Assembly (NCBI RefSeq): GCF_963921235.1
Contig: NC_086108.1
Coordinates: forward strand, 44,642,001 to 44,706,000
Source of the DNA: Mobula hypostoma
Lineage: Eukaryota
DNA: 64,000 nt
Direction of reading: 5' to 3'
The notes below the pieces were generated by a model. That model made no database searches, was not told the origin of the DNA, and worked only from the letters and a program-made list of their open reading frames with translations. Numbering within the stretch: the stretch's first letter is position 1; each line of letters opens with the position of its first letter. The translations under genes and the position numbers were made by a program. Positions 17,640 to 57,900 of the stretch are shown one piece after another.

Positions 17640-20600
17640 TGTTACGTACCCCGTAACTGGATTGCCAAACCAGCAGAAATGGATCACTCAGTTGGAGTCT
17701 GGATTACTAGAACTAAGAAAGTTTTATTAAAGAAACAAACAACACAGTACTCTAATCAAAAGGATAATAAATGCAACAGTTCAGCAATGATAAACATACA
17801 TGTACACAGAATTAAGATAACAGGATCAATCAAGCTCTATCGTTGTCTAGGGGTAAATGACCAGTTTCAAAGTGACGCAAAGTTCAGTTCAAATTAGTTC
17901 AGTTCAGTTTGCAGTAATCGCTGCCGTGGCGATGGAGAGTGGGAGGGGGAGGAGAGAGAGAGCAAAACGAATGAATATTCAAAACCGCTTCCACACAGAT
18001 CTTCGCAGTCAGCTTTCGGGCGAGTCCTTTGTTATGTCATCTGAGGTCACCGACCGTGACCCCTCCGTTTCCAGATACGATTGTTTCCCTGCGGTGAACC
18101 TGGCACCCAGGCAAGGGTGGACACACACCAGGTTCCCGCCGATCGTGCCTTTCCACCCTGTGCGTCTATGGACCTGTACTTCCCACTGACTTGTGAGAGA
18201 CGCACCGCTTCCAGGGTCTTGTTACCTCAGGTGTCGTGTGTGTGTCCTGCCTTAGCGAACCTGTCCCTTTTTATCCCTCTGCTGGGGTATCGCCTGTCCA
18301 TCACTTCAAACAGTTCAGGGTTCAAAGGGGGAGCCGATCTTGACAGCTCTCCTTCCCCTTCATTAACATCTCCAAATACTGCTCCATTGTTTTCCTTATC
18401 TCTCTCTTTCCTGAAGACAGGTGGCAGACCAACTGCTGATCCCCCTGGTGCCAGCACAGGACAGCTACATCTTAATCTATGTGTATTCTTGTCACACTTC
18501 CCCCCTTTAAGGATTTTTACCGGGGGGTAAAAATTACAAACATGAATATATTATTTGATACACACAAATACACATCTTTATCAGCTATTTGGTTAATACA
18601 GCAAATTTGAAGTTGTCAACACCTTGACAGACAGTCAGCCATCACATTTCCTGTTCCTTTTATATGTTATTAATAATCCCTTAGACCAGGCTCCAACTTA
18701 GCAAACTTCATAGTGGCCAAAAACACTGATGAGTTGCGATCAATGTAACCTCTCATTTGGTTTCGTCCCGGACCACAATAACAAGGGTCGTCCCATTCCG
18801 ACTTAGTTTTCTCTCGCAAGGGCTTAGTAGGAGGGGGAGGGGTAGTAACCGCAGAGTTATTGCAAAACTTCCTACAGTACCCCACCATCTCCAAGAGCCT
18901 TCTGAGGGCCCTCTAGTCTGTCGGGGTTGGGATGTCAGAGATAGCCCGCACTTTAGCCTGCATTGCTGCCAGTTGCCCCTGTGTCACCACAATTCCCAGG
19001 TAAGTGACCTTTGTGTGGCCGAACTCATTTTTTTCAAGGTTCACTATCGAGCTGGCTTCAGACAGCCATATGACATCGCCAATACACACCTCTGTGTTTG
19101 TCAGCCCTTTAGTCACTGAATTACTCATTATCATTCTATATGGATGGTGCTCGCTAGGCTAACCAATGTCCCAGTTCGTTGCATCGCCTCGGGACAATCA
19201 AACACACGTGTGCGAGTCGTTTAATTACTTCTCCTAAAGAGTCGCTTTGTTTGGGGATTAAGGGAGAGACCTTATCAGCAGAGCTGGCCAAAACAATAGC
19301 CTTCTCCCATCTGGTCGATACCATACTCATCTTTTCAAAATGGTTTATTTCTCTTATCAGGGGGACCCTAGCTTCATTGATTTCCGTGCTAACACGGACT
19401 AGGTTTGTTAGCATATCAAAAGCCTGTGACCGTCTCAGTTTGCGTCTGCCATGATCAATAACACCCTTCCTCCTGGGCAGCCGGTAAACCTCTTTCATGA
19501 TTCCACCAACTGTTTCCTCCAGCACCGCAAAATGTCCACCGGGGGGGTACCTTGTGGGCCAGGTTAAAAATCTCATCCCCATAACTCTTTTGCACCACCC
19601 CCCATTCCTCATCTGCAGGTACGGTACTTGGTTTCCCTTTCTTCCTTAGCACTTCCTCATCCGCACAATAGCCTACTGGTTCCCTTGTTAATTCTGTGTC
19701 AGAGGGAGCTGTCTCTGCCAAAACCATCAGCCCCTCGTCTCGCTCCTGCGCCTGCACAAATTCTTTCCTGGCTAATGCTAAGTCTGTCTCAGCTCCCTCA
19801 CTACCTCTTGTTTCGCTACACTCCTTCTTTTCACTTTCTACCCCCTTCTCGTACAAGGCTGGCAGAAACGTCTCCGCTAAATTTACTACCGCAGTCCCAT
19901 GATGAACCTGTGAGTCCATGGGCGGGGCCTCAATGCTGGCAGACTGACCTGTCAATCTCACTGCTTCGAACACGATTCCCCCTGGCGAGGTCATTACCGA
20001 GCAAGACTTCCACGCCTTTCATCGGTAATTCGGGCCTCACCCCGATCGTGACTAGTCCAGAGACCAGGTTACTTTGTAAGTGTATCTGGTGCAAAGGGAC
20101 TGCCTCTGTCCCTTCCCCAATCCCTTTGATCTTGACTTCCCCAGTCAGGGTCTCTGAGCTAAACTCTAATACACTCTTCAGTATTAGTGACTGACACGCT
20201 CCCGTGTCTCTCCAGATCCGCACTGGAACTGGTTTTAACCCCTCCTTCACCGACACCAATCCGGCCGAGATAAACCTCTCGCGCCCTTCCTGAACTTTGG
20301 CATACCTGTCCTGTCCTAGCGGTTCGTTTACCAGCTCAATACAGCCAGTCAAAATCGCCGTTTTTCCTTTTCCCGTCTCCTTCTTTGGGGCAAAGCACCT
20401 GGACGCAAAGTGTCCGACTTTCCCGCAATTATAACAGACAACCCCAGGAGACTTCCTACCAGACTGCTCCCGGTCTACCTTATCCTTCTCACTAGTCCCT
20501 GGCTTACTTTCTGACTTTTCTGGCGGACTCTCCCTGCCATCCTAACTACCCTTCTGGTAGCCTTTACTTGGGGCAAACTTCATTTTATGCGTCAATGCAT

Positions 20601-22526
20601 ACTCATCCGCTAACTTAGCAGTTGGGGCTAACGTGGCTGCCTCTTTCTCATCTAGGTAGGGTCTCATACCCTCAGGGACACAACCTTTAAACTGCTCAAT
20701 CAGGATCAGCTGTAGCAGTCTGTCATAATCCCCCTCTACCCCCTTCGAGGCGCACCAACGCTCACAATATGTCTGCATCTCACGGGCAAACTCTAAATAC
20801 GTGCGGTCCCACTGCTTCCTCGCATTCCGGAACCTCTGCCGGTATGCCTCCGGGACCAACTCATAAATCCTGAGGATGGCCTCTTTCACCACCTCATACC
20901 TCTGGGCATCTTCCGCGGACAAAGCTGAGTAAGCTTCTTGGGCTTTCCCTTTCAGTACACTCTGAAGCAAAACAGCCCACTTATCCCTCGGCCAGTCCTG
21001 ACTTGTAGCAACTTTTTCGAAATGGAGAAAGTACCGATCCACGTTGGTATTGTCAAATGGGGGAACCAGCCTAACCTCCTGGGTCGCCCAGAACCCTCCA
21101 CCTTGGTTCGGCACGGGCCCCTGCTCGGCCCTTATCTTTAACTTCTCCAGCTCAAATTCCCTTTCCCTCTGCCTCTCTCTCTCTTCTCGCTCCCATTGCC
21201 TCTCTTTCTCGTCTCTCTCCAACTCTCTCTCTCTCTCTCTCTCTCTCCTGCCTTTCTAACTCTTTCTCTTTCTCTTGCCTTTCGAACTCTCTCTGCTTCT
21301 CTTCTCGCTCCAACTGCCGTACCCGGAACTCGTGCTTGAGTCTCAGCTTTTCAAGCTGCACCTGTACTGCGTCTCCAGCAGGTTTTTCAATAGACAACAC
21401 CTCCAGCTCGTCTTGGGGAAACACACCTTTAGATACATAGTGCTCTACGATAGCTCTGTGTATCTCCTCTCTCCTCATTGTCGACTTCCCCTTAGCAAGA
21501 TTCAACCGTTTGGCCACAGCTACCAATTCCGTTTTCCTGGCATCCTCTAATGCCTCCAAGGTCGGCGCCTTTATAATTTCCTCAGCCTCCATTTCTGCTG
21601 TTTGTCTTTTCTTTCTTTCGGGAATTTTGACCCAATCAATTTACTCCGTCCCAAATTTAGTGTTCAAAATCGCGGACGAGAACCCCACTTATGTTACGTA
21701 CCCCGTAACTGGGTTGCCAAACCAGCAGAAATGGATCACTCAGTTGGAGTCTGGATTACTAGAACTAAGAAAGTTTTATTAAAGAAACAAGCAACACAGT
21801 ACTCTAATCAAAAGGATAATGAATGCAACAGTTCAGCAATGATAAACATACATGTACACAGAATTAAGGTAACAGGATCAATCAGCTCTATCTTTGTCTA
21901 GGGGTAAATGACCAGTTTCAAAGTGACGCAAACTTCAGTTCAGTTCGCAGTAATCGCTGCCGTGGGAGATGGACAGTGGGGGGGAAGGAGAGAGAGAGCA
22001 AAACGAATGAATATTCAGGGCTTCCACACAGACCTTCGCAGTCAGCTTTCGGGCGAGTCCTTTGTGATGTCATCTGAGGTCACCAACCGTGACCCCTCCG
22101 TTTCCAGATACGATTGTTTCCCTGCGGTGAACCTGGCACCCAGGCAAGGGTGGACACACACCAGGTTCCCGTCGATTGTGTCTTTCCACCCTGTGCGTCT
22201 ATGGCCCGGTACTTCCCACCAACTTGTGAGAGACGCACCGCTTCCAGGGTCTTGTTACCTCGGGTGTTGTGTGTGTGTCCTGCCCTAGCGAACCTGTCCC
22301 TTTTTATCCCCTGCTGGGGTATCGCCTGTCCATCACTTCAAACAGTTCAGGGTTCAAAGGGGGTCCCGATCTTGACAGCTCTCCTTCCTTCATTAACATC
22401 TCCAAATGCTGCTCCATTGTTTTCCTTATCTCTCTCTCTCCTGAAGCCAGGTGGCAGACCAACTGCTGATCCCACTGGTGCCAGCACAGGACAGCTACAT
22501 CTTAATCTATGTGTATTCTTGTCACA
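17640..22526 (-). mobile_element. Full-length non-autonomous Gmr1-like Gypsy LTR element, copy A (frameshifted)
   Basis: LTRs 17640-18496 and 21692-22526 (TG...CA), 4-bp TSD TGTC, PPT at 18497-18510, PBS at ~21662-21687. Gag (SCAN-like, CCHC), protease RDTGA and pol remnants are collinear with copy B. Confidence 0.93.
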
Positions 22527-31705: not shown

Positions 31706-33035
31706 TAAATTCTGTATTCTATAGAAATAACTTTGAACAATTGAATCATGAAGTTAATGGGTTGTAAATCACGGGAACGGTGCAGGAAAAGTATATTTGG
31801 GATCTTAATCATTACCATCTAAAATGTAAGTTTTCTGGCAACTATCTTGAAAGTATTGAGCTGGAGGTAATAGAAATTGATTTAAATTGAAAGTGTGGTT
31901 TTGAATGATATTCAACCAATCTGCAATGATCTGCTGGAAATGTCATCGATTTTTTAAGCCAGATTTGGATAATGGAGGTCTGGATTATTTACCATAAATT
32001 AGAAAATATTTGACCTTACTCTTTACATTGCTGGATTTTTTTATGGGGGAAAGCTGGTCAAACTATTACAATCTGTAATTTGATTCCTGCAGCATTTTCT
32101 TAGATTGTTTATGCAGTTATTGTTCCAGTCTCTTGAGAGAAAATTTATGGTTATAGTTGATTATGCCGATTATGCCAACCTGATTGTGGAGATTATGCCA
32201 ACCTGTTTCTTGATTCTGGTTTTGGGAATTGGGATGCAATCCTGCAGAGTAAGCATGTATCAGTGACCAGGAGAAGCTCTTGTCTATGAGAATTTCTTAT
32301 TGGTTTTATCTGGAGATCTCTAAAGTAAGTCATAGGTATCAGAAACCCGGTTAACCATAACTTTGGCTTTGAATTGAATTTTGAAAGTGAGATTTGTGTT
32401 TGAGCATTAATAGTGATGATTTTGAACTTGATCAAACAGCTGGCAAAACCTGTAGAATAGTATTTATGTTGCCTGTTTCTGTGGTTAAATAGTTGAAAAT
32501 TGAAGGTATTTTGTAGCATTGTTCTCATTGTGATGTCACATTGGGGAAATTAAGATGAAAGGCTGAGATCCATATTTGGGCTTTGTAGAAAAAAGTCACT
32601 AGTAACAAATGTTTGTTTTTGGTATTAAAATTAGTAATAATGATTTCTTTGATTTGAAAATAGTTTGCTTTTTAGAGACAATTCAATTTAGAAAAACAGC
32701 AGCTTCATTTAGTATAAGGGAGATTTTATTTATCATTTATTGAATTCTCAGCATCAGACTTACCCAGTAAAATATATTTTGCAGATATTCTACATTGATG
32801 GTGTTGACTGCTGATTTAGAGAATTAATATAATGCATCAAGTAGATAGTTCTACAAAATTTTGAAACTACTGGGTTTATTGTGTGAAACAATTCTTCAGA
32901 AAAATGGAGTTCTGAAATCAGAAGTCTAATGGTTTAGGTAGGAGGGAGAGTGGGTGTTTTTGATTTGCTTTTCAGCTGGTTTGGCACAACACAGTGGGCC
33001 GAACGGCCTGTTCCTGTGCTATAGTCTTCTATGTT

Positions 33036-34252
33036 TCACATTGTCCACATTGTCTCTGTTTTAGGTGATACAACTCCACATTGTCTATGTTTTAGGTGAT
33101 ACAGCTCCACATTGTCTATGTTTTAGGTGATACAACTCCACATTGTCTCTGTTTTAGGTGATACAACTCCACATTGTCTATGTTTTAGGTGATACAGCTC
33201 CACATTGTCTATGTTTTAGGTGATACAACTCCACATTGTCTATGTTTTAGGTGATACAACTCCACATTGTCTATGTTTTAGGTGATACAACTCCACATTG
33301 TCTATGTTTTAGGTGATACAGCTTCACATTGTCTATGTTTTAGGTGATACAGCTTCACATTGTCTATGTTTTAGGTGATACAGCTTCACATTGTCTATGT
33401 TTTAGGTGATACAACTCCACATTGTCTATGTTTTAGGTGATACAACTCCACATTGTCTTTTAGGTGATACAACTCCACATTGTCTATGTTTTAGGTGATA
33501 CAACTCCACATTGTCTATGTTTTAGGTGATACAACTCCACATTGTCTATGTTTTAGGTGATACAACTCCACATTGTCTATGTTTTAGGTGATACAGCTTC
33601 ACATTGTCTATGTTTTAGGTGATACAGCTTCACATTGTCTATGTTTTAGGTGATACAGCTTCACATTGTCTATGTTTTAGGTGATACAGCTTCACATTGT
33701 CTATGTTTTAGGTGATACAGCTTCGCATTGTCTATGTTTTAGGTGATACAGCTTCGCATTGTCTATGTTTTAGGTGATACAGCTTCGCATTGTCTATGTT
33801 TTAGGTGATACAGCTTCGCATTGTCTATGTTTTAGGTGATACAGCTTCGCATTGTCTATGTTTTAGGTGATACAGCTTCGCATTGTCTATGTTTTAGGTG
33901 ATACAGCTTCGCATTGTCTATGTTTTAGGTGATACAGCTTCGCATTGTCTATGTTTTAGGTGATACAACTCCACCTTGTCTATGTTTTAGGTGATACAAC
34001 TCCACCTTGTCTATGTTTTAGGTGATACAACTCCACCTTGTCTATGTTTTAGGTGATACAGCTCCACGTTGTCTATGTTTTAGGTGATACAGCTCCACGT
34101 TGTCTATGTTTTAGGTGATACAACTCATTGTCTATGTTTTAGGTGATACAGCTTCACATTGTCTATGTTTTAGGTGATACAACTCCACATGGTCTATGTT
34201 TTAGGTGATACAACTCATTGTCTATGTTTTAGGTGATACAGCTCCACATTGC
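33036..34252. repeat. Minisatellite, 31-bp unit CTCCACATTGTCTATGTTTTAGGTGATACAA, about 39 copies
   Basis: Contiguous tandem units without spacers. Variants occur in blocks. Confidence 0.97.
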
Positions 34253-34719
34253 TAGGGTTGCGGGAGGGCTGAGATGAGGCGGGATTGATTGTATTGGATA
34301 TTGTCAAATTTGTAATGTACATGAGGTGTATATGTAATGGAATAAGAAATATTTTACGACTGAGAAAGCAATTACACTTGTCAGGTATGCATGGAAACCT
34401 GTGGATTTTATCCTCGGGTAGAAATACTTGAAAACAAAAGCGGAGGTTGTGGATCCATGCAATAATTGAAGATGTTGGTCATTGTACACCGCCCCCCCCC
34501 AGTGGGTTGCTGGGGGGGGCTGCAGTTTGTTGGGCCCAAAAGGCCTGTCCTGTGCTATTTTTCTAAATAAATAAATGTGAAGACAAACCAACTATTAAAC
34601 ATTAATGTCCAGTGTCATTTGTGCAGAAATGAGCTGCAGTATATCTCAACCTTTTCTCAGGACTAAGGTAAAAAAAAATGTCAAAATAACATCCAAGGAT
34701 ACACATTGTATTGAAAGGA

Positions 34720-39376: not shown

Positions 39377-42300
39377 AGTGTTTCCCAACCTTGTTTAATC
39401 CCAAGCCCCCTTAAAGTATTATCATACTTGCCAACGCCCCCCTGAAGTACTCTCATACTTGCCAATGCCCCTCTTGGGCACAGTATACTTTCTAGTGCCC
39501 CCATCGTGTAAAAATATGTCTATCATATGCTAACTGAGAAAATTATTCTGCTTTAAATCTTTATTTGTCTTTAACCTAGCTTATGCAGTACCTGTGCGCT
39601 GTACAGCAGCTTCGATATCAATGTGATCCTTGAGCTTGATGACTTTTAGCAAAAATTGAAATATCTGGTTGAAGTTGTGGTCTTAAGTCCCCAGGCATAA
39701 CAATGTCCAAGCAGTTTCTGTTTTTTTGTGATATTGTGGTTCACTGCACTGAAGTCTCTTTCACCAAGGTAGGAGGGTGGAAATGCAATGAAGAGCAGTT
39801 TGACTCTTCTCTAAAGACCAGGAAACTTCATTTGACAGAGTAGCCACATACCACAAAAGCTGACATTTTTGAAAAGCATTTTTACTTCTTCATCATTCTG
39901 AATTTCGATAATTTCTTCTTGCAAGGTCTCTTCCTGTTCTTCCACCTTGCAAAGAAATAAAGTTAATTACCCAGTCCCAGTCCAGAATTTCCAGGTCATT
40001 TAAATCCTTGAATCGATATTGAAAATACTTCGGTGACTGCAGGTGTAAGCAGTATTCTTGCAAATCGCCATCTGTGAAAGAGAGTGCCATACTTTACATG
40101 TAGAGAAATTGAGACGACATTCTTCTCCTGATGTTTTGTGTATATATTTCCAATTTTCTGATAAAAGTGGACACTGCTCTTTTTGCCTGGATTAAATTGA
40201 AATTCTCACCCTGTAGGTTCATACGTAGAATATTCATTTTGATTGGTTAGGTATGCCACATCTCCAAGTAGAAGTTCAGTCTTGTTTCCAAAGCTCTTGT
40301 TAACTTTGAGCAAAAATTCAACCATGGTGTCAAAAAGATCAAGGAAACATTTTAAGCAGCAGCCTCTTAACAGCCAATGCACTTCTTTGTGAAGAAGCAA
40401 GTGTCCTAACTTATCATCATTATCTTAGCGTAACTGGTGAAATATTCTGCTATTTAGTGGATGATCTTTAATTTTGTTGATAGCAGATATTACAAGAGTC
40501 ATGCTTGAAAAAAGTCACTGGCTAAGGTTTTTGATTGTGAGATGTTGATGATGAATTACACAATGGACTGCAAACTGACTTGGAATTTCTTTTTTCATAA
40601 ATGCCACAATACCAGCATGGTGATCTGTCATACATGGTGCTTCATCTGTTGCACAAGAAATTGAATAATTACTTTGGTTCTGTCTTCACTAAGGAGGACA
40701 TAAATAGTCTTCCAGAAATAGTAGGGGACAGAGGGTCCAGTGAGATGGAGGAACTGAGCGAAATACATGTGAGTAGGGAAGTGGTGTTAGGTAAATTGAA
40801 GGGATTGAAGGCAGATAAATCCCCAGGGCCAGATAGTCTGCATCCTAGAGTGCTTAAGGAAGTAGCCCAAGAAATAGTGGATGCATTAGTGATAATTTTT
40901 CAAACCTCGTTAGATTCTGGACTAGTTCCTGAGGATTGGAGGGTGGCTAATGTAACCCCACTTTTTAAAAAAGGAGGGAGAGAGAAACCGGGGAATTATA
41001 GACCGGTTAGCTTAACGTCAGTGGTGGGGAAACTGCTGGAGTCAGTTATCAAGGATGTGATAACAGCACATTTGGAAAGCGGTGAAATCATCGGACAAAG
41101 TCAGCATGGATTTGTGAAAGGAAAATTATGTCTGATGAATCTCATAGAATTTTTTGAGGATGTAACTAGTAGAGTGGATAGGGGAGAACCAGTGGATGTG
41201 GTATATTTGGATTTTCAAAAGGCTTTTGACAAGGTCCCACACAGGAGATTAGTGTGCAAACTTAAAGCACACGGTATTGGGGGTAAGGTATTGGTGTGGG
41301 TGGAGCATTGGTTAGCAGACAGGAAGCAAAGAGTGGGAATAAATGGGACCTTTTCAGAATGGTAGGCGGTGACAAGTGGGGTACCGCAAGGCTCAGTGCT
41401 GGGACCCCAGTTGTTTACAATATATATTAATGACTTGGATGAGAGAATTAAATGCAGCATCTCCAAATTTGCGGATGACATGAAGCTGGGTGGCAGTGTT
41501 AGCAGTGAGGAGGATGCTAAGAGGATGCAGGGTGACTTGGATAGGTTGGGTGAGTGGGCAAATTCATGGCAGATGCAATTTAATGTGGATAAATGTGAAG
41601 TTATCCACTTTGGTGGCAAAAATAGGAAAACAGATTATTATCTGAATGGTGGCCGATTAGGAAAAGAGGAGGTGCAACGAGACCTGGGTGTCATTATACA
41701 CCAGTCATTGAAAGTGGGCATGCAGGTACAGCAGGCGGTGAAAAAGGCGAATGGTATGCTGGCATTTATAGCGAGAGGATTCGAATACAGGAGCAGGGAG
41801 GTACTACTGCAGTTGTACAAGGCCTTGGTGAGACCACACCTGGAGTATTGTGTGCAGTTTTGGTCCCCTAATCTGAGGAAAGACATCTTTGCCATAGAGG
41901 GAGTACAAAGAAGGTTCACCAGATTGATTCCTGGGATGGCAGGACTTTCATATGAAGAAAGACTGGATGAACTGGGCTTGTAGTCGTTGGAATTTAGAAG
42001 ATTGAGGGGGGATCTGATTGAAACGTATAAGATCCTAAAGGGATTGGACAGGCTAGATGCAGGAAGATTGTTCCCGATGTTGGGGAAGTCCAGAACGAGG
42101 GGCCACAGTTTGAGGATAGAGGGGAAGCCTTTCAGGACCGAGATTAGGAAAAACTTCTTCACACAGAGAGTGGTGAATCTGTGGAATTCTCTGCCACAGG
42201 AAACTGTTGAGGCCAGTTCATTGGCTATATTTAAGAGGGAGTTAGATATGGCCCTTGTGGCTACGGGGGTCAGGGGGTATGGAGGGAAGGCTGGGGCGGG

Positions 42301-43450
42301 GTTCTGAGTTGGATGATCAGCCATGATCATAATAAATGGCGGTGCAGGCTCGAAGGGCCGAATGGCCTACTCCTGCACCTATTTTCTATGTTTTCTATGT
42401 AAATCATGTTCCTAATTGGAATACTTTTATCCTCCAAATAGATTTTGAGTTCATTGTAGATTGATTCTCCATTGATATTTGTTTATTTGCAGAAGAGAAT
42501 CTCTTCATAAAATGGCTAGCACGCGAGGGCATAGTTTTAAGGTGCTTGGAAGTAGGTACAAAGGAGATGTCAGGGGTAAGTTTTTTATGCAGGGAGTGGT
42601 AAGTGTGTGGAATGGGCTGCCGGCGGAGGCAGAAACAATAGGGTCTTTAAAGAGACTCCTGGATGGCTACATGGAGCTTAGAAAAATAGAGGACTATGGG
42701 TAAAGCCTAGGTAGTTCTAAGGTAGGGACATGTTCGGCACAGCTTTGTGGGCCGAGGGGCCTGTATTGTGCTGTAGATTTTCAATGTTTCTATAAACTTT
42801 TCCATTTTTGATAAATCATACATATGCCATCTGTAATGCTTCATTGTATCACACCATTGACTCATCCAGTTGTATCCCAAATTCTGTTTTTTGTAGTGCT
42901 GTGCCCGTAGTTCATTCTCAATGGCTTCACTCTTTTCATCAGTATGAGGGGTTACAGAGTTATTAATCAGAAGAATTGATTTTAAAATACTGGTATCCAT
43001 TTTGAGAACAGTGGTGAGCACTTCTGATACAGCAGGCATTATTAATCTTTCACCAATTGAATGAGATTTTCTGTGCTTTGCCATCATTTTGGAAATGTTA
43101 TAAGCACCACTATCAAGGTCAATTTTAGCTTTCTTGGCAAATGACTGGAGTGTGCAATGCTTTTCAAATGCTTCTTTCATCTTCTGGAACTGAACAATAT
43201 CATAAGTAGCCTTTTAGGGAAGTGTTCCTGCAATCTTGATTGTTTCATGGCTTGATTAGACAGTACAGTATTACACATAAGACATATGAGGTGTTGCTGA
43301 TCTGACGGGAATGGAATAAAACCATTCTCCAGGTATGTAACATTGTATTGATGCACTTTCTGTTAATTCTGTGTCTTAGCAGGATTAGAATTCATGGCTT
43401 CACTGCCTTCAGACTCGGAGATAGAGCTATATGTATTTATCCATTGTTGA
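39377..43450 (-). mobile_element. hAT (Buster/ZBED5-like) transposon fossil interrupted by CR1 insertions
   Basis: End CAGTGTTTCCCAACC at 39377. Minus-strand remnants AKHRKSHSIGERLIMPAVSEVL, CATDEAPCM, HCVIHHQHL, LLHKEVHWL, AFPPSYLGERDFS. Confidence 0.75.
40657..42400 (+). mobile_element. Young 5'-truncated CR1 LINE (RT domain to 3' tail; two in-frame stops)
   Basis: ORFs 40601-41365, 41369-41983 and 41987-42307 are in one frame (KSPGPD, NYRPVSLTS, YLDFQKAFDKVPH, GVPQGSVLGP, KFADD). Tail TTTTCTATGTTTTCTATGT. Confidence 0.95.
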
Positions 43451-46840: not shown

Positions 46841-48834
46841 GAAAAATGCACGTCTTCTTCCTACAAGGTGAATCCTAACATCATGAATGCCTGTGATGCT
46901 TCACTCCTAGATGAGAGTAACACGTTGTTATGCATACTTTGAAAGGGAGAATAAAACTACACCTATGCAAATCTCTACATCTGGTGACCCTTGGAAGCTG
47001 ACTTCAGGATATCTTTCATGAGGGTGAACCCTTGCAAGGCCTCAGACCTTGTTGGTACCTGGTAGGGCACTGAAAACCTGAGCTTATCAACTGGCTGGAG
47101 CATTCAAGGACATCTTCTGTCTCTCACCGCTACAGTCAGAGGTTCCTACATGCTTCAAAAAGGTGACAGTGCCCAAGTAGAGCAGGGGGAGCTGCCTCAA
47201 TGACTAATGCATAGCTGCACTCACCTCTGCAGTGATGAAGTGATTTGAGGGATTGGTCATGGCCAGAATCAATTTCTGCCTAAACGAGGACCTGAATCTG
47301 TTGCCACAATAGGTCTACAGTGGAGGCAATCTCGCTGGCTCTCCATTCGGCCTTGGATCACCTAGATAACAGTAATACATACAGTTGCAAGAAAAAAGTT
47401 TGTGAACCCTTTGCAATTACCTGGTTTTCTGCATTAATTACTCATAAAATGTGGTCTAATATCTGAGTCACAATAATAAACAAACAGAATCTGCCTAAAC
47501 TAATAACACACAAATAATTGTACTACTTCTCATCAATACTGAATACATGATTTAAACAATCATATTCTAGGTTCAAAGAAGTATGTGAACTCTGGGGTAT
47601 TGCCTTCTACAAAAGCTATTTGGAGTCAAGTGTTCCAATCATTGAGATGAGCTGGGAGGTGTGAGGTGTAGTGGTGCCTTGCTCTATAAAAAAAGACACA
47701 CAAAGTCAGGTTATAGATAGAGCCTGCTCTTCTCAAGAAAGATCTGTTTATGTGCACCATGCCCCAATCAAAACAACTTTCAGACGACCTTAGAAGAAGA
47801 ACTGTAGAGATTCATGAAGCTGGAAAAGGCTACAAAAGCATTTCGAAAGACCTGAGTGTTCATCAGTCCACAATAAGAGAAATTTTCTGCAAATGGAGGA
47901 AATTTAGTACTGTTGCTACTCTCCCTAGGAGTAGGCGTTCTGCAAAGATCACACCAAGGGCACAATGTGCAATGCTGAAGGAGGTGAAAAAGAACCCAAG
48001 GGTAACAGCAAAAGACCTGCAAAAATCTCTAGAACTTGCTAAAGTTTCTGTTCATGTGTCCACGCTAAGAAAAACACTCAACAAGAATGAGGAAATCACT
48101 GCTCTCCAAAAACAAAAACATTGCTGCATGTCTCAGGTTTGCAAAAGACCACCTGGAGTTCTGTAATGCTTCTGGGACAATGGTCTATGGACCTGTGAGA
48201 CAAAAGTTTTTTGGCAGAAGTGCCCACCGCTATGTTTGGAGGTAAAAGGGCACTACACACCAACACCAAAACCTCATCCCAGCTGTGAAGCATGGTGGAA
48301 GGAGGATCATGCTTTGGGGCTGCTTTCTGTCTCAGGGCCTGGACAGCTTGCAGTCATTGACGGAATAATGAATTCAAAATTGTATCAAGACATTTTACAG
48401 GAGAATGTCATGGTAGTGGTCCACCACCTGAAGCCTACTAGAAGTTGGATGATGCAACAAGACAATGATCTGAAACACAAGAGTAAATCAACAAAAAAGA
48501 GAAAAAGAGAAAATGTGTTTTGGAATGGCCAAGTCAGAGTCTACACTTTAACCCGATTGAGATGCTATAGTGTAACCTGAAGAGGGCTACACTACACTAC
48601 ATGCAAGGTATCCCAGAAATATTGATGAACTGAAATAGTTTTGTGTAGAGGAATAGTCAAAAATTCCTCCTCGCCATTGCAGCTGCAGAAATTGTCTGGT
48701 GGAGGTTATTGCTGCTAAAGGAGGTTCTACCAGTTATTAAATACAAGGGTTCACTTACTTCCAGCTTGTGCTGTGAATGATTAAACAATGTATTCAATAA
48801 AGACCTGAAAAGTACAATTGTTCTTAGTTTAGGT

Positions 48835-49985: not shown

Positions 49986-50054
49986 GTTTAGGTGGATTGA
50001 GTTTGCTATTATTGTGACTTAGATGAAGATCAGACCACATTTTATGATTAGTGT

Positions 50055-53000
50055 TGTTACGAGAATACACATAAAATTAAGATGTTTGCTGGCCTGGGCT
50101 AGCATCAGTGGCATCAGCAGTTGGTCTGCCACCTGCCCTCAGGGGAAGGAGAGATAAGGAACAATGGAGCAGCGTCTGGAGATGTGTAATGAAGGGATGT
50201 GGGAGGAAGAGCTGTCTGGAGCGGCTCCCCCCTTTGAACCCTGAACTGTTTGAAGTGATGGACAGGCGATACCCCAGCAGGGGGATAAAAAGGGACAGGT
50301 TCGCTAAGACAGACACACACGCCACCCGAGGTAACGAGACCCTGGAAGCGGTGCGCCTCTCACGAGTGATGAGAAGTACCGGACAACGCACAGGGTGGAA
50401 AGGTACGATCAGCGGGAACCCGGTGTGTGTCCGCCCTTGCCTGGGTGCCGGGTTCACTGCAGAGGATCGACCGCATCTGGAGGAGGGGTCACAGTCGGTG
50501 ACCTCAGGTGACATCACCAAGGACCCGCCCAAATGCTGTTTGTGAGCCATCCCGCTGGTCTGTGAGTGAAGCAGTGTTCTGAATGATCAGTAGTTCCTAT
50601 TCTATCTCTGTCTCTCTTCCCCCACCTTGTCCATCGCCATGGCAACGATTACTGCGAACTGAACTACAAACTGGACTGAACTTTGAGTCATTTTGAAATT
50701 GGTCATTTACCCCTAGACAACGATAGAGCTTGATTGATGCTGTTATCTTAATTCTGTGCACATGTGTTTATCATCACTGAACTGTTGCATTTATTATCCT
50801 TTCGATTACTGTGTTGCTTGTTTCTTTAATAAAACTTTCTTAGTTCTAGTACTCCAGACTCCAACTGAGTGATCCATTTCTGCTGGTTTGGCAACCCAGT
50901 TACAGGGTACGTAACATAAGTGGGGTTCTCGTCCGCGATTTTGAACGCTAAATTTGGGACGGAGTAAATTGATTGGGTTAAAATTCCCGAAAGAAAGAAA
51001 AGACAAACAGCAGAAATGGAGGTTGAGGAATTTATAAAGGCGCCGACCTTGGAGGCATTAGAGGATGCCAGGAAATCGGAATTGATAGCTGTGGCAAAAC
51101 GGGTGAATCTTGCTAAGGTGAAGTCGACAATGAGGAGAGAGGAGATACACAGAGCTATTGTAGAGCACTATGTATCTAAAGGTGTGTTTCCCCAAGGTGA
51201 GCTGGGGGAGGTGTCTATTGAAAAACCTGCTGGAGACGCGGTACAGGTACAGCTTGAAAAACTGAGACTCGAGCACGAGTTCCGGGTACGGCAGTTAGAA
51301 CACGAAGAGAAGCAGTTAGAAAGGCAGAAGAAAGAGAGAGAGGTAGAAAGGCAAGAGAGAGAAAGACAGTTGGAGAGAGAAGAGAGAGAGAGGGACAGAC
51401 AGTTGGAGAGAGAAGAGAGAGAGAGGGACAGACAGTTGGAGAGAGAGGAGAAACAGAGGGAAAGGGAATTTGAGCTGGAGAAGTTAAAGATAAGGGCCGA
51501 GCAGGGGCTCGTGCCGAACCAAGGTGGAGGGTTCCGGGCGACCCAGGAGGTTAGGCTGGTTCCCCCATTTGACGATACCGATGTGGATCGGTACTTTCTC
51601 CACTTCGAAAAAGTAGCTATAAGTCAGGACTGGCCGAGGGATAAGTGGGTTGTCTTACTTCAGAGTGTACTGAAAGGGAAAGCCCAGCAAGCTTACTCAG
51701 CTTTATCCGCGGAAGATGCCCAGAGGTATGAGGTGGTGAAAGAGGCCATCCTCAGGATTTATGAGTTGGTCCCGGAGGCATACCGGCAGAGGTTCCGGAA
51801 TGCGAGGAAGCGGTGGGACCGCACGTATTTGGAGTTTGCTCGTGAGATGCAAACATATTGTGAGCGTTGGTGCGCCTCGAAAGGGGTAGAGGGGGATTAC
51901 GACAGTCTGCTGCAACTGATTCTGATTGAGCAGTTTAAAGGTTGTGTCCCTGAGGGTATGAGACCCTACCTCGATGAGAAAGAGGCAGCCACGTTAGCCG
52001 CAACTGCTAAGTTAGCGGATGAGTATGCGTTGACGCATAAAATGAAGGTTGCCCCGAGTAAAGGCTACCAGAAGGGTAGTCAGGACGGCGGGGAGAGTCC
52101 ACCGGAAAAGTCAGAAAGTAAGCCGGGGACTAGTGAAAAGGATAAGGTAGACCGGGAGCAGTCTGGTAGGAAGTCTCCTGGGGTCGTCTGTTATAATTGT
52201 GGGAAAGTCGGACACTTTGCGTCCAGGTGCTTTGCCCCAAGAAAGGAGACGGGGAAAGGAAAAGCGGAAATTTGGAATGGCTGTATTGAGCTGTTAAGCG
52301 AACCGCTAGGGAAGGACAGGTCTGAAAAAGTCCAGGAAGGGCGCGAGAGGTTTATCTCGGCCGGACTGGTGTCAGTGAAGGAGAGGTTAAAACCAGTTCC
52401 AGTGCGGATCTGGAGAGACACGGGAGCGTGTCAGTCATTGATATTGAAGAGTGTATTAGAGTTTAGCTCAGAGACCCAGACTGGGGAGGTAGAGGTCAAA
52501 GGTGTTGGGGAAGGGACAGAGTCAGTCCCTTTGCACCAGATACATTTACAGAGCAACCTGGTCTCTGGACTAGTCACGATCGGGGTGAGATCCGAATTAC
52601 CGATGAAAGACGTGGAAGTCTTGCTCGGTAATGACATCGCCGGAGGGATCGTGTTCCCAGTCGTGAGATTGACGGGTCAGCCTGCCAGCATGGAGGCCCC
52701 GCCCGCGATGGTGAATTTGGCTGAAACATTTCTGCCAACCTTGTATGAGACAGGGTGTAGTGAGATAAGAGGTAGTGAGGGAGCTGGGACGGACGTAGCA
52801 GTAGCCAGGAAAGAATTTGTGCAGACGCAGGAGCGAGACGAGGGGCTGATGGTTTTGGCCGAGACAGCTCTCTCTGACACAGCCTTGACAAGGGAACTAG
52901 TAGGCTATTGTGCGGATGAGGAAGTGCTAAGGAAGAAAGGGAAATCAAGTACAGCATCCGCAGATGAGGAGTGGGGGGTGGTGCAAAAGAGTTATGGGGA

Positions 53001-54935
53001 TGAGGTTTTTAACATGGCCCACGAGGTACCCCCCGGTGGACATTTTGCGGTGCTGGAGGAAACAGTTGGTGGAATCATGAAAGAGAGTTACCGGCTGCCC
53101 AGGGGGAAAAATGTTATTGATCATGACCGACGCGAACTGAGACGGTCACCGGCTTTTGATATGCTAACAAACCTAGTCGGTGTTAGCGTGGAAATCAATG
53201 AAGCTAGGGGCCCCTTGATAAGAGGAAAAAACCATTTTGAAAAGATTAGGATGGGATCGGTCAGATGGGAGAAGGCTATTGTTTTGGCCAGGTCTACTGA
53301 TAAGGTCTCTCCCTTAATCCCCGAAGGAGTAATTAAACGACTCGCACCCATGTGTTTGATTGTCCCGAGGAAATGCAAAGAACTGGGACGTTGGGTTATG
53401 TCGGTTACAATAGGGCGGCCAAGTAAACAACACCCATATTTTTTGAGTAATTCAGTGACTAAAGGGCTGATGAACACAGAGGTGTGTATTGGCAATTTAA
53501 CACGGCTGTCTGAAGCCAGTCTGATAGTGAACCTTGAAAAAAATGAATTCGGCCACACGAGAGTCACCTACCTGGGAATTGTGGTGACACAGGGGCAGCT
53601 GGCAGCGATGCAAGCTGCAGTGCAGGCTATCGCTGACCTCCCCACCCCGACAGACAAGAGGGCCCTCAGAAGGCTCTTGGAGATGGTGGGGTACTGCAGG
53701 AAGTTTTGCAATAACTCTGCGGTCAATACCCGTCCCCCTCCTACTAAGCCCTTGCGAGAGAAAACTGAGTCGGAATGGGACGACCCTTGTTATTGTGGTC
53801 CGGGACAAAACCAAATGAGAGGTTACATTGGTCGCAATTCATCAGTGTTTTTGGCCACTATGAAGTTTGCTGAGTTGGAGCCTGGTCTAAGGGATTATTA
53901 ATAACACGTGTAAAAGGAACAGAAAATGTGATGACTGTCTGTCAAGGTGTTGACAGCTTCAAATTCTCTGTATTAGCTAAATAACTGTTAAAGATGTATA
54001 TTGTGTATGTATCAGATAATGTAGTCATGTTTGTAATTTTTACCTCCCGGTAAAAATCCTTAAAGGGGGGAAGTGTTACGAGAATACACATAAAATTAAG
54101 ATGTTTGCTGGCCTGGGCTAGCATCAGTGGCATCAGCAGTTGGTCTGCCACCTGCCCTCAGGGGAAGGAGAGATAAGGAACAATGGAGCAGCGTCTGGAG
54201 ATGTGTAATGAAGGGATGTGGGAGGAAGAGCTGTCTGGAGCGGCTCCCCCCTTTGAACCCTGAACTGTTTGAAGTGATGGACAGGCGATACCCCAGCAGG
54301 GGGATAAAAAGGGACAGGTTCGCTAAGACAGACACACACGCCACCCGAGGTAACGAGACCCTGGAAGCGGTGCGCCTCTCACGAGTGATGAGAAGTACCG
54401 GACAACGCACAGGGTGGAAAGGTACGATCAGCGGGAACCCGGTGTGTGTCCGCCCTTGCCTGGGTGCCGGGTTCACTGCAGAGGATCGACCGCATCTGGA
54501 GGAGGGGTCACAGTCGGTGACCTCAGGTGACATCACCAAGGACCCGCCCAAATGCTGTTTGTGAGCCATCCCGCTGGTCTGTGAGTGAAGCAGTGTTCTG
54601 AATGATCAGTAGTTCCTATTCTATCTCTGTCTCTCTTCCCCCACCTTGTCCATCGCCATGGCAACGATTACTGCGAACTGAACTACAAACTGGACTGAAC
54701 TTTGAGTCATTTTGAAATTGGTCATTTACCCCTAGACAACGATAGAGCTTGATTGATGCTGTTATCTTAATTCTGTGCACATGTGTTTATCATCACTGAA
54801 CTGTTGCATTTATTATCCTTTCGATTACTGTGTTGCTTGTTTCTTTAATAAAACTTTCTTAGTTCTAGTACTCCAGACTCCAACTGAGTGATCCATTTCT
54901 GCTGGTTTGGCAACCCAGTTACGGGGTACGTAACA
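50055..54935 (+). mobile_element. Full-length non-autonomous Gmr1-like Gypsy LTR element, copy B (very young)
   Basis: 862-bp LTRs 50055-50916 and 54074-54935, in which I find one difference (A50904 vs G54923). 4-bp TSD GTGT, PBS 50921-50946, PPT AAAGGGGGGAAG 54062-54073. Confidence 0.96.
51016..53901 (+). CDS. 961-aa Gag-protease polyprotein with in-frame remnants of integrase and RT/RNase H
   Basis: Coiled coil, SCAN-like capsid (LILIEQFKGCVPEGMRPYL..LADEY), CYNCGKVGHFASRC knuckle, RDTGA..LLGND protease, AHEVPPGGH integrase-ZF remnant, PSKQHPY and LIVNLEKNEF..VTYLGIVV..LRRLLEMVGYCRKF RT remnants. Confidence 0.9.
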   Translation: MEVEEFIKAPTLEALEDARKSELIAVAKRVNLAKVKSTMRREEIHRAIVEHYVSKGVFPQGELGEVSIEKPAGDAVQVQLEKLRLEHEFRVRQLEHEEKQLERQKKEREVERQERERQLEREERERDRQLEREERERDRQLEREEKQREREFELEKLKIRAEQGLVPNQGGGFRATQEVRLVPPFDDTDVDRYFLHFEKVAISQDWPRDKWVVLLQSVLKGKAQQAYSALSAEDAQRYEVVKEAILRIYELVPEAYRQRFRNARKRWDRTYLEFAREMQTYCERWCASKGVEGDYDSLLQLILIEQFKGCVPEGMRPYLDEKEAATLAATAKLADEYALTHKMKVAPSKGYQKGSQDGGESPPEKSESKPGTSEKDKVDREQSGRKSPGVVCYNCGKVGHFASRCFAPRKETGKGKAEIWNGCIELLSEPLGKDRSEKVQEGRERFISAGLVSVKERLKPVPVRIWRDTGACQSLILKSVLEFSSETQTGEVEVKGVGEGTESVPLHQIHLQSNLVSGLVTIGVRSELPMKDVEVLLGNDIAGGIVFPVVRLTGQPASMEAPPAMVNLAETFLPTLYETGCSEIRGSEGAGTDVAVARKEFVQTQERDEGLMVLAETALSDTALTRELVGYCADEEVLRKKGKSSTASADEEWGVVQKSYGDEVFNMAHEVPPGGHFAVLEETVGGIMKESYRLPRGKNVIDHDRRELRRSPAFDMLTNLVGVSVEINEARGPLIRGKNHFEKIRMGSVRWEKAIVLARSTDKVSPLIPEGVIKRLAPMCLIVPRKCKELGRWVMSVTIGRPSKQHPYFLSNSVTKGLMNTEVCIGNLTRLSEASLIVNLEKNEFGHTRVTYLGIVVTQGQLAAMQAAVQAIADLPTPTDKRALRRLLEMVGYCRKFCNNSAVNTRPPPTKPLREKTESEWDDPCYCGPGQNQMRGYIGRNSSVFLATMKFAELEPGLRDY

Positions 54936-57900
54936 GTGTAGAAAACCAGATAATTGTAAAGGGTTCACAGACTTATTCATGCAACTGTACATCAGGCCAC
55001 TAATTATTGATTACAGCTCAGTTTTCAATACCATCATATCTGCAGTACTAATCAACAAGCTCCAAAACTTGGACCTTTGTACCTCCCTGTGGAAAAAAGC
55101 TTGTGTTATAGCAGAACTGCCTGGATTGTGAACAAGCAGGTTTGTGGGGGGATTGGGGGAGAAGGATGTGGGTATGATTTGTCCTATGAGGAAAGGTTAT
55201 GAAGATAGGCTTTCACACATTAGAAGAATGAAAGGTGATCTCATTAAAATATAAACTTACTGGTGCTTGACAGGGTAAATGATCATATGAGATAAGATAT
55301 AGGGGCATAATTAAGTGATTCAGCCCACTGAGTCTGCTTCACTGTTCAATCATGGTTGATTTTACTTCAACCCCATTTTTCCGCTGTCTTCCCATTACCC
55401 TTGAACCCCTCCGAATCTAGACTCTCCTGCTAACAGAAGCTTCCCATGTTCACTTATTTAGGCCTTTCAGTATCTGGAAGGTTTCAATGAGATAGAGTCG
55501 TAGATTATTTCAGCAAAGAAACGGGCCCTTCAGTCCATCTTGTCTGTTACATGAGTTATAGGGAAAGGTTGAATTGGTCAGGAATTCATTACCTGGAGTG
55601 CAGGAGAATGAAGGGAGATCTTATAGAGCAGGACTTCCCAACTTTTTTTTAATGCCATGGACCAATACCATTAAGCAAGGGATACCTCTATACAAAACTA
55701 TGATGGATATAGATGGGTAAATGCATGCAGACTTTTTCCCCTGTGGTTGGGTGAGACTTGAAGTAGAAGGGTTGAAACATTCAAGGGGAACCTGAGGGGG
55801 AAATTCCCTCATAGGGTGATGCAAGTGTGGAAGGAGCTGCTAGTGAAGTGGTGAATGTGGGCTCAATTGTAACATTTAAGAGAGGTTTGGATAGGTATAT
55901 GGATAAAAGGTTTGTCAGAATATCATTGACCATTTAGGACATAGAAGTTTCTTCACCTTCATGTAGGGAATGAGAGTTCTCTAAGATGGCAATAGAGGCT
56001 TGAGTTGCATAGGATAATCAATACTGACTTTAGAATTATCAGAGCAAAATGCTGTTGAGTTTTAATGGTCAGCCATGATCTTATTGATCAGTGGATCAGG
56101 CATGAGTGGCCAAATGGCCTGTCTTGACTTCTTGTGACATGTGTGGTCAAAATAAAGGGTAATTTTGTTAAACTGTTATCAGTAGGGTGTTACAAGGATT
56201 AGCAGTAGGATATCTGCATTAAACACTTGAAAAACAGCACAATTTATCAATGTTTGCTAATGATGCAAGTCTGAATGGGAAAAGTAGGGTCTGTAGATAA
56301 TGCAAAGTCTTTGTAACAAGTTATCTGTGCCTTAGTGGACAACAGGGAGTGCGCAAATTTGTTTATTAATTTGTAACAAGATATCTTTGCCTTAGTGGGA
56401 CAACAGGGAGTGTGGAAATTTGTTTATTAATTTTGGTAGGAATAATTTTAAAATCAAATGTTAAACCTAACAAATACAAGTGTACAGAGGCATCTGAATG
56501 TGCTAATGCACAGAATGGGAGTGTTAGCATAAAGGTTTTCATATTTTTTTGATGGTTCTTGCTGGAAAGACCAACATTTATTGACCATCACTGGTAGTGA
56601 TGTTCCTATGCAGCTGTTGCCTTTGTCCTCTTCTGTGGTATACAAGAATTTGTAAAAAGGTTTTGTTAGAGTGTAGAGGTAAGTACATTGGTACATTTTG
56701 TTGATAGTATGATGGGTGGTTTACTAGTGAAGGAGATGCTTTGTCTTGGCTAATTTTGACCCAATTATGTTGTCATTCCATTTCTGGGCAACTGGAAAGT
56801 GTTATATCATGTTCCTGACTTGTACTGCAAAGTTTTTTTTAGTATCTGCAAGGCGGGAGATACCCAGCCTATGACTTGCATTTATATTTATGTAATTGGC
56901 TCAATTGAATTTCCAGTCAACAATAACTAATTTTTTTTTTAACTTCAGATGGTGTCGAGGCTGCAGTTCAGATTTAGTTGATTTTAATTTTTTTAGATTT
57001 ATAGTGATGGTTTTGGGGACCGAGGGGGATTAGGGATCAGGTTACAGTTTAGGGAGAGGGATGTGGGGAATTAGAGGTCAAGCCAGAGTCTGAGTCTGAG
57101 CCTCCGCTCCACATTGGAAGTTGGAAGGCCAGTAACACAGAGGTAGGATGTTTAGTGTGAAAGAGAGCTGGTCCCCCCCACGCCCCACATTGTTGAGCTG
57201 TCTACAGGTTCCAGGGCAGGCAGAAGAAAGAGGGTCCTATGACTCCCTGAGTGTGCAAATCGGTGAGACTTGAATTTGAGGCCTAGTGTTTGGGATCCCG
57301 TCATTGGCCTAGTGTTTGGCAATTGGCAGGTCCTGAGGTTGATGCCGAAGATTGAAGCCTGACAGTTGATCAGAAGTCCAAAAGTCAAGGCCCAATGGCG
57401 GAAGCCCAAGTCTGTTAGTCTTTGTCTGCTGGGGAAGTCAAAGCCGGATGTCTGTGAGCCTGAATCTGAATCTGCTGTAGGATGAAGATGGCCTGTCCTA
57501 GGGTTGGGGGCCGGGGGTGTACGTACACAGAGGAAAAGAGAGGAAAGGGGTTTGCTTTGCTGTTGCTGTTTTGTCTCTTTTTCTGTTGTGTCCCTTTTTC
57601 TGTTGTGTCCCTGTGCCGAGCATTGTGGACATACTGTGTTTGCTCTGGAATGTGTAGTCATACTTGCGGGATCCCCCCCAGCATCCCTTGGTGTGTTAAT
57701 GCTAACGATGGATTTCACTGTATGTTTTGATGTACAGATGATAAATAAATTTGGATCTTGATAATGGTAGGGGTCGTGGTGGTATTGCGGTTGAAAGTCA
57801 AGGATAGGTGATTAGACTCACTTTTTGAAGCTGCTCATTGTTTGACATTTGCTTGACTTTTGTATAGGTTTTGCTCTGCCAGCTGCGGCAAAAGAACATC

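Follow-up and report, generated by a model that had tools for sequence, protein, structure and literature searches.

The closest described counterpart of the element analyzed here, a non-autonomous long terminal repeat (LTR) retrotransposon of the ray Mobula hypostoma at 50055–54935 of a 64,000-nucleotide stretch of contig NC_086108.1 (positions 44,642,001 to 44,706,000; hereafter the window), is the mouse IAP 1Δ1 element, the primary paper on which is reportedly that of Saito et al. 2008. Both elements are non-autonomous and carry a single fused, in-frame gag-pol open reading frame (ORF) that followed internal deletion, and 1Δ1 is described as needing partner proteins in trans, as out-transposing its partner and as an element for which translation matters in cis (PMC6466679, PMC7411935). 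As presented there, 1Δ1 is betaretrovirus-like and has one 1.9-kb deletion, whereas the ray element is a Gmr1-like Gypsy element with about 15 successive insertions and deletions (indels), a pol remnant that drifts and has diverged by 25%, and fossil copies that document each step. Furthermore, the cis benefit of translation is stated for 1Δ1 in those reviews, whereas here it is suggested by evolutionary evidence only.

A second likeness is with the defective-interfering RNAs known from mouse hepatitis virus (a coronavirus), which are treated in PMC8255065 as helper-dependent deletion genomes that require a long chimeric ORF whose encoded sequence is irrelevant. Similarly, the ray element keeps a long ORF without constraint on the encoded sequence (ratio of non-synonymous to synonymous substitution rates, dN/dS, of 0.87 and 1.12; no inherited stops); the coronavirus genomes belong to a cytoplasmic RNA virus in cell culture, whereas the ray element is a germline retrotransposon with several amplification waves. 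The initial annotation of the window had named the plant elements TR-GAG and BARE-2 as analogues, with which the element shares being a mobile non-autonomous LTR element that retains part of the coding region. However, as defined in PMC4350172, TR-GAG elements are under 4 kb, keep Gag and show no similarity to protease, integrase, reverse transcriptase (RT) or RNase H, whereas the present element measures 4,881 bp and has a protease and a pol remnant. The BARE-2 comparison is inverted, given that BARE-2 is without Gag and borrows that of its partner, while Gag is intact here (same source). Finally, Gmr1-like Ty3/Gypsy elements are outlined in bioRxiv 10.1101/2025.03.03.638093 as having, like this one, a SCAN-like capsid followed by protease, integrase and RT-RNase H; the enzymes past the protease are deleted or dead in the ray element. 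Our preferred account, which we consider reasonably probable, is that a parasite lineage swaps LTRs and capsid with a full-length partner, likely borrows its enzymes, and keeps its frame likely due to RNA surveillance. It builds on the observed stepwise in-frame deletions, the drift of the remnant protein, the absence of inherited stops, a mosaic ancestry and a 29:1 excess over the partner.

The hallmarks of recent mobility reported in the initial annotation were reproduced, namely an LTR pair identical at 861/862 positions (one mismatch), a GTGT target site duplication (TSD), a primer binding site (PBS), a polypurine tract (PPT) and one stop-free ORF of 961 aa, in which Pfam matches are limited to SCAN (E 2e-12) and zf-CCHC. 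Within 52705–53865, each of the five remaining frames contains 7–32 stops. Downstream of the protease, aa 564–950 are scraps in the ancestral frame and collinear with the full-length partner, in the order originally proposed (integrase zinc finger, RT start, palm/thumb, RNase H end), and the last 11 residues alone are off-frame. The individual motifs also stood: the integrase N-terminal scrap keeps H..H and has lost CxxC and the DDE core, the RT start reads PSKQHPY, the YxDD site reads CIGN (CIGD in copy A, an older family member within the window), the RNase H end reads VFLATMK, and a KGTENVM remnant sits 3' of the stop codon. The pol mosaic of about 400 codons needs only a minor correction, since aa 564–657 are protease–integrase linker. 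Residues 830–906 match the Ty3 RT in the PDB (E 3e-5), and the terminal TAA arrangement was found in 60/60 non-autonomous copies examined. Judging from these motifs, the element is without working integrase, RT and RNase H. The protease has the invariant residues of 59 homologues, and its structural model (pLDDT 81) gave retroviral proteases as best fold matches (E about 1e-3, TM about 0.55–0.6), while a PDB sequence search with the protease returned no real match. A single-sequence fold of protease plus remnant was discarded as uninformative (pLDDT 31).

The autonomous relative sharing LTR ends and PBS, for which a search had been recommended, was found with a ray integrase core as query. The search yielded full-length elements, several of them with frames of 1,414–1,580 codons, and 20 of the 150 listed were fetched. 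The youngest full-length copies carry HHCC, DDE, YIDD and RNase H in that order, an order also seen in homologues, and have LTRs 95–97% identical to those of the element, with the same PBS and PPT. An apparent dead RT (YIGY) shared by the full-length copies was rejected as an alignment artefact, the true reading being YIDD. The SCAN-like capsid, the order protease, integrase, RT and RNase H, the TG...CA termini, the TSD, the tRNA primer site and the PPT are those of Gmr1-like elements, an assignment based on capsid domain, domain order and LTR hallmarks. A 26-nt pattern across the junction of the younger copies (stages 3–4, see below) had 2,147 genome matches, compared to 75 for an integrase-core pattern, also of 26 nt, that full-length copies of young and intermediate age have in common (one mismatch allowed in each), which gives a non-autonomous to partner ratio of approximately 29:1, based on single patterns. 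The remnant was present in 30/30 examined loci whose UTR–LTR stretch (UTR, untranslated region) is identical to that of the element, and the ORF was intact in 16/20 young copies fetched whole. The family thus has no replication coding capacity and has nevertheless multiplied alongside a full-length partner with shared cis signals; as first proposed, the element is, on this genomic evidence, a young member of a propagating, helper-dependent non-autonomous Gmr1-like family. The ratio among 30 old-LTR copies was 21:9, and its rise to about 29:1 now is suggestive only with regard to a lowered helper replication.

Older copies preserve the successive steps of erosion, in the order of an 867-nt loss (integrase), a 384-nt loss (RT), a 258-nt loss (RNase H) and then smaller indels. 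Among 30 loci with old-type LTRs, 9 were full length, 13 lacked the 867 and 384 nt (stage 1), 5 also lacked the 258 nt (stage 2) and 3 were otherwise rearranged. The 867 junction pattern itself had 76 genome matches; 30 loci chosen by this junction included 6 with the 867 deletion but without the 384 deletion (stage 0) and 1 at stage 2 plus the terminal 14-nt deletion. Stage 3, the type of copy A, adds changes of −36, −15, +3, −21, +3, −54 and +3, and −3 in the protease, and stage 4, to which the element belongs, adds −27, −21 and −18, with many young copies also having −12. Median LTR-pair divergence fell from 5.6% at stage 1 to 4.7% at stage 2, 3.1% at stage 3 and 0.12% at stage 4 (12, 5, 19 and 19 copies, respectively; excluded were a tandem copy of stage 4 and, for want of an LTR pair, one copy each of stages 1 and 3). 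The large deletion junctions carry direct microhomologies of 5–7 nt. Short direct repeats at deletion junctions are expected from template switching, and splicing was rejected as the origin of the deletions on account of these repeats, the junctions not having GT-AG ends. As a separate observation, contigs of a second organism cover the remnant with older-stage alleles, which hints that the family predates the species split.

The inherited indels, i.e., those on the trunk of the series, were multiples of three in 14 of 15 cases, as the initial annotation had anticipated, compared with 17/88 for inherited LTR/UTR indels. The probability of such a count is 2e-6 at an expectation of 1/3 and 1e-4 to 2e-3 when a 45–55% in-phase bias of microhomologies in the ORF is allowed for. 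The sole frameshifting trunk indel lies 36 nt before the stop, whose distance to the LTR it changes by about 50 nt. In line with these figures, indels common to at least 3 of the 43 stage 0–2 copies were in frame in 7/7 cases (split alignments of the 867 deletion being merged), compared with 19/110 for singletons. Moreover, 7–10.6 nonsense changes would be expected in 386 codons over 0.20–0.25 substitutions per site, and none was inherited (P of no stop by chance, 3e-5 to 8e-4). The proposal that selection keeps the frame open is thus supported by the trunk indels, the missing stops and the indels shared among old copies. That chance combined with an in-phase bias of template-switch deletions produced this pattern is scarcely credible: the 5–7-nt junction microhomologies and the ORF repeats, which are in phase 40–55% of the time, do speak for such a bias, but p is still 1e-4 to 0.02 with the bias included, and independently there is the improbability of no stop, so that this explanation is already unlikely on the two tests together.

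Several observations weigh against selection on the frame. Firstly, an apparent −1/+1 pair, when counted as two frameshifts, raises p to 0.002–0.02 under the microhomology bias. Secondly, the 3-nt trunk indel in the protease also occurs in one full-length copy and is hence not independent. In addition, indels present in exactly 2 old copies were in frame in merely 5/14 cases, a TAG at 53416 is common to 10/30 stage-3 copies, and a +1 at 53029 occurs in 4. Inheritance of the stop at 53416 was rejected, given that copies with the TAG show no greater similarity among themselves than with the remaining copies, and we read the shared TAG as a probable recurrent mutation after insertion. Stops shared among old copies fall at CGA codons or at one hotspot with carriers that do not form a clade. 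Apart from this question, 53400–53445 is unusual in its own right: in the 30 stage-3 copies, 141/1,323 cells differ there (10.7%) compared with 2.2–2.7% elsewhere in the remnant, 9 private deletions fall there compared with 4 in the remainder of the remnant, and young copies differ strongly. It has the appearance of a place where breaks recurred following insertion, and we would guess at a recombination hotspot or a nuclease site.

With regard to the encoded protein, net dN/dS of the remnant was 0.87 [0.64–1.25] between stages 1 and 3 and 1.12 [0.69–1.91] between stages 3 and 4, whereas the corresponding codons gave 0.24 and 0.26 from one partner generation to another (partner values overall, 0.20–0.26). 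These between-group estimates cover 331 codons, with terminal branches excluded, 300 bootstrap replicates and a single recombinant young copy omitted. The intervals include 1 in all three remnant sub-regions on both branches. New shared variants in the remnant of 50 young copies comprised 20 non-synonymous (N), 6 synonymous (S) and 0 stop changes. Since the remnant drifts at the protein level and has no inherited stop, selection would be acting on the translation of the remnant and not on the remnant protein. It is accordingly very unlikely that the pol mosaic gained a new protein function, an option raised at the outset and already largely refuted; the open frame and the still recognisable RT thumb fragment favour such a function, and three-taxon dN/dS values above 1 in places (1.2–1.9) could be read as adaptive change, but the net intervals around 1 and the 20 N/6 S variants speak otherwise, and pieces of the remnant continue being deleted.

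The element is also a mosaic. Net distances between non-autonomous copies and the same-era partner were about 0.001 in the capsid and 0.001–0.003 in the LTR, whereas the remnant stood at 0.007, 0.19 and 0.25 from the same-era partner across successive eras. Monophyly of 14 stage 3–4 copies among 38 rows was rejected for the LTR (approximately unbiased test, p 2e-52) and the capsid (2e-4), whereas stage 3–4 copies were monophyletic in the remnant tree with a support of 100. On these trees, the LTRs and capsid are renewed from the partner in each era, and the remnant is one old lineage, which makes the protease-plus-remnant cassette the lasting lineage. A soybean non-autonomous element is similarly said to keep up with its autonomous counterpart through LTR-exchanging recombination (Du et al. 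2010); in the ray pair, by contrast, exchange extends to the capsid, and what endures as the core of the lineage is a dead cassette that is translated. RT-associated recombination is treated in a review (PMC6894440). As a side observation, one full-length copy (L078) has the protease type of the non-autonomous lineage, and exchange might be reciprocal.

That the element makes its own particles, as first proposed, is unproven: with a capsid imported from the partner, conservation of the capsid does not demonstrate use of the element's own Gag. For own Gag-protease use, lineage-specific variants are only suggestive, with 7 N/8 S new shared variants in capsid, nucleocapsid and protease of the 50 young copies compared with 20 N/6 S in the remnant (p 0.086). 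The same figures bear on the idea that the family is a mutualist, providing its single-ORF partner with additional Gag and protease and raising the Gag:Pol ratio, the open tail being secondary. DTG is intact in 30/30 and CCHC in 29/30 young copies, and the protease branch has a three-taxon dN/dS of about 0.2. However, the capsid is simply that of the same-era partner, the stage 3–4 protease dN/dS has an interval too wide to decide (0.54 [0.15–2.41]), the same protease type occurs in one full-length copy, and the open remnant is left unexplained. As the main explanation we consider mutualism improbable, while it would be compatible with the preferred account as an added role.

According to the preferred account, non-autonomous RNA would be packaged together with partner RNA in shared particles and partner enzymes used in trans, and template switching during reverse transcription would yield both the deletions and the mosaics, as the junction microhomologies and mosaic trees suggest. 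As a cis need, ribosomes would have to travel up to a point no more than about 170 nt short of the 3' LTR, most simply because the transcript would thereby evade nonsense-mediated decay, to which RNAs are subject when their 3' UTR is long. The remnant would then be translated filler, able to lose sequence only at its extreme end or in steps divisible by three. The distance from stop to the sole AATAAA is 946 nt, while a stop placed after the protease would leave 2,182 nt. The single tolerated frameshift fits such a 3' UTR-length rule, as it shifts the stop by only about 50 nt. On the other hand, the sequence data do not separate nonsense-mediated decay from further effects coupled to translation, and there is no explanation for the remnant not being removed in one step.

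Those other effects form the principal alternative, namely that the open frame serves some different purpose in cis, through translation itself or through the nascent polyprotein: ribosome transit could aid export, localisation or packaging or protect the RNA against small-RNA processing, or a long tail could position Gag or tune the protease. This alternative, which we regard as doubtful though worth weighing, fits all frame and dN/dS data equally, and it draws on the fusion protein of IAP 1Δ1 aiding retrotransposition in cis (PMC6466679, PMC7411935) and on the suggestion, in a Ty1 paper, that some translation is needed for RNA stability (PMC3945221). Against it, Gag cis-preference alone needs no frame past the protease, and the tolerated frameshift sits where the 3' UTR-length rule predicts. 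A further argument against a role of the protein product is a second family, which keeps its frame though capsid N-half, CCHC and DTG are gone.

This second abundant Gmr1-like family (4,416 first-look candidates), to which the tail of a stingray protein led, is 66–70% identical to the partner in RT and LTR ends; the N-terminal half of its capsid is gone, as are CCHC, DTG and the integrase motifs. Of 14 fetched copies, 2 had open frames (1,065 and 1,110 codons), one of them stopping about 145 nt before the 3' LTR, and gag-protease dN/dS was 0.8–1.4. Two points temper the comparison: the copies were chosen mostly for long frames (14 of 150 listed), and indels were in frame in 13/19 shared compared to 25/57 private cases. 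As a supporting lead, the second family may be a parallel case of a frame kept open. We give slightly better than even credence to a more general 'translate to the end' rule, by which any parasite of the Gmr1-like retrotransposons of rays would have to keep a single frame from gag start to 3' LTR irrespective of what is encoded, leaving a dated, stepwise germline record of how defective-interfering genomes evolve in at least two independent families. Of separate note in the second family are a hydrophobic segment of unknown origin 3' of the dead protease and an integrase core retained in some copies. Three proteins (P0017, P0037 and P0047, two of them from Hemitrygon and Hypanus) combine intact Gag-protease with an in-frame degenerate gag-protease tail; they were rejected as an independent Gag-protease family, since the tails match the degenerate gag-protease of the second family.

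The initial reading was therefore borne out in part, and the fossil series, the recurrent partner swapping and the second family were absent from it. Elements of this kind are already known. The literature searched, which did not cover elasmobranch repeat catalogues, Dfam or Repbase, contained no account of a neutral protein eroded in dated in-frame steps, of capsid and LTR renewal, of the second family, of the present family itself or of selection acting solely on the frame of a non-autonomous LTR element, and prior cataloguing of the family is possible. The system offers natural controls within one genome, as codons that the partner conserves are drifting in the parasite with the frame open, which separates selection on being translated from selection on the protein. 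If the account is true, long intact ORFs in high-copy elements would be no evidence of protein function or domestication, RNA surveillance would shape which defective elements spread in vertebrate germlines, and the fossil series would make it possible to trace across evolutionary time how a defective-interfering genome arises. If the 'translate to the end' rule is true, such elements would be a source of translated junk and chimeric proteins. With thousands of natural copies with and without early stops, the decay hypothesis is testable from RNA data alone. The features of the element are compiled in Table 1.

Table 1. Coordinates within the window of the element, its parts and a related copy.
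Feature	Position	Strand	Basis or remark
Target site duplication GTGT, 4 bp	left 50051..50054, right 54936..54939	.	sequence
5' LTR, 862 bp, TG...CA	50055..50916	+	partner-type; net distance to young full-length copies 0.002
Primer binding site (PBS)	50921..50939	+	4-nt spacer after 5' LTR; variant of tRNA-Pro match
Single ORF, 961 aa, Gag-protease-pol remnant	51016..53901	+	open reading frame list
Gag E/R-rich repeat	51280..51480	+	length differs between copies
Capsid C-terminal (SCAN-like) domain	51772..52041	+	partner-type; PF02023, aa 253-342, E 2e-12
CCHC zinc knuckle, intact	52189..52230	+	Pfam zf-CCHC
Recombination boundary	52254..52263	.	upstream partner-type, downstream non-autonomous-lineage sequence
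Aspartic protease, DTG kept	52330..52665	+	DTG in 30/30 young copies
Protease-integrase linker and integrase N-terminus, H..H kept	52705..53133	+	shortened via in-frame deletions
867-nt integrase deletion junction and later 21-nt deletion	53125..53165	+	alignment to partner
Integrase-RT linker and RT start (PSKQHPY)	53158..53448	+	3' limit is the 384-nt RT deletion junction
Dead RT palm and thumb fragment	53449..53790	+	YxDD site reads CIGN; 54-nt deletion after YxDD site
258-nt RNase H deletion junction, RNase H end (VFLATMK), 14-nt frameshifting deletion, 11 off-frame codons, TAA	53791..53901	+	
Recombination boundary	53921..53967	.	sequence returns to partner-type
Polypurine tract (PPT)	54062..54073	+	sequence
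3' LTR	54074..54935	+	sole AATAAA at 54847; poly(A) signal role inferred
Copy A, older stage-3 member of same family	17640..22526	-	LTRs 93.6% identical

Copy A is broken, its longest ORF being 179 aa. The PBS variant occurs in 14/20 young copies, and the site in the other 6/20 either is the canonical tRNA-Pro match or departs from it by one letter; a mismatched PBS is present at every stage, and the canonical-like sites appear as if corrected in reverse transcription. An Rfam search gave no match up to E 1, and no tRNA gene was found within the window. The closest named proteins to the ORF are from M. hypostoma (up to 96%), followed by other rays, and NCBI lists ORFs of this family as host proteins (a MACC1 isoform; trichohyalin-like), which is likely a mis-annotation. 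Contigs of four runs, whose RNA type was guessed, span the whole element with some flank bins blank; copies are pooled in them, and they were unused as evidence. Head-to-tail tandem copies, spaced at approximately the element minus one LTR, occur in full-length and non-autonomous types alike. Elsewhere in the window, there is a tandem array with a 31-nt unit at 32920–34300, and transposon-like ORF fragments lie at 27417–29519, 40601–41983, 42707–43180 and 47750–48166, which we take to be of hAT-type transposase, LINE (CR1-like) reverse transcriptase, SPIN/hAT-like and Tc1-like transposase origin.

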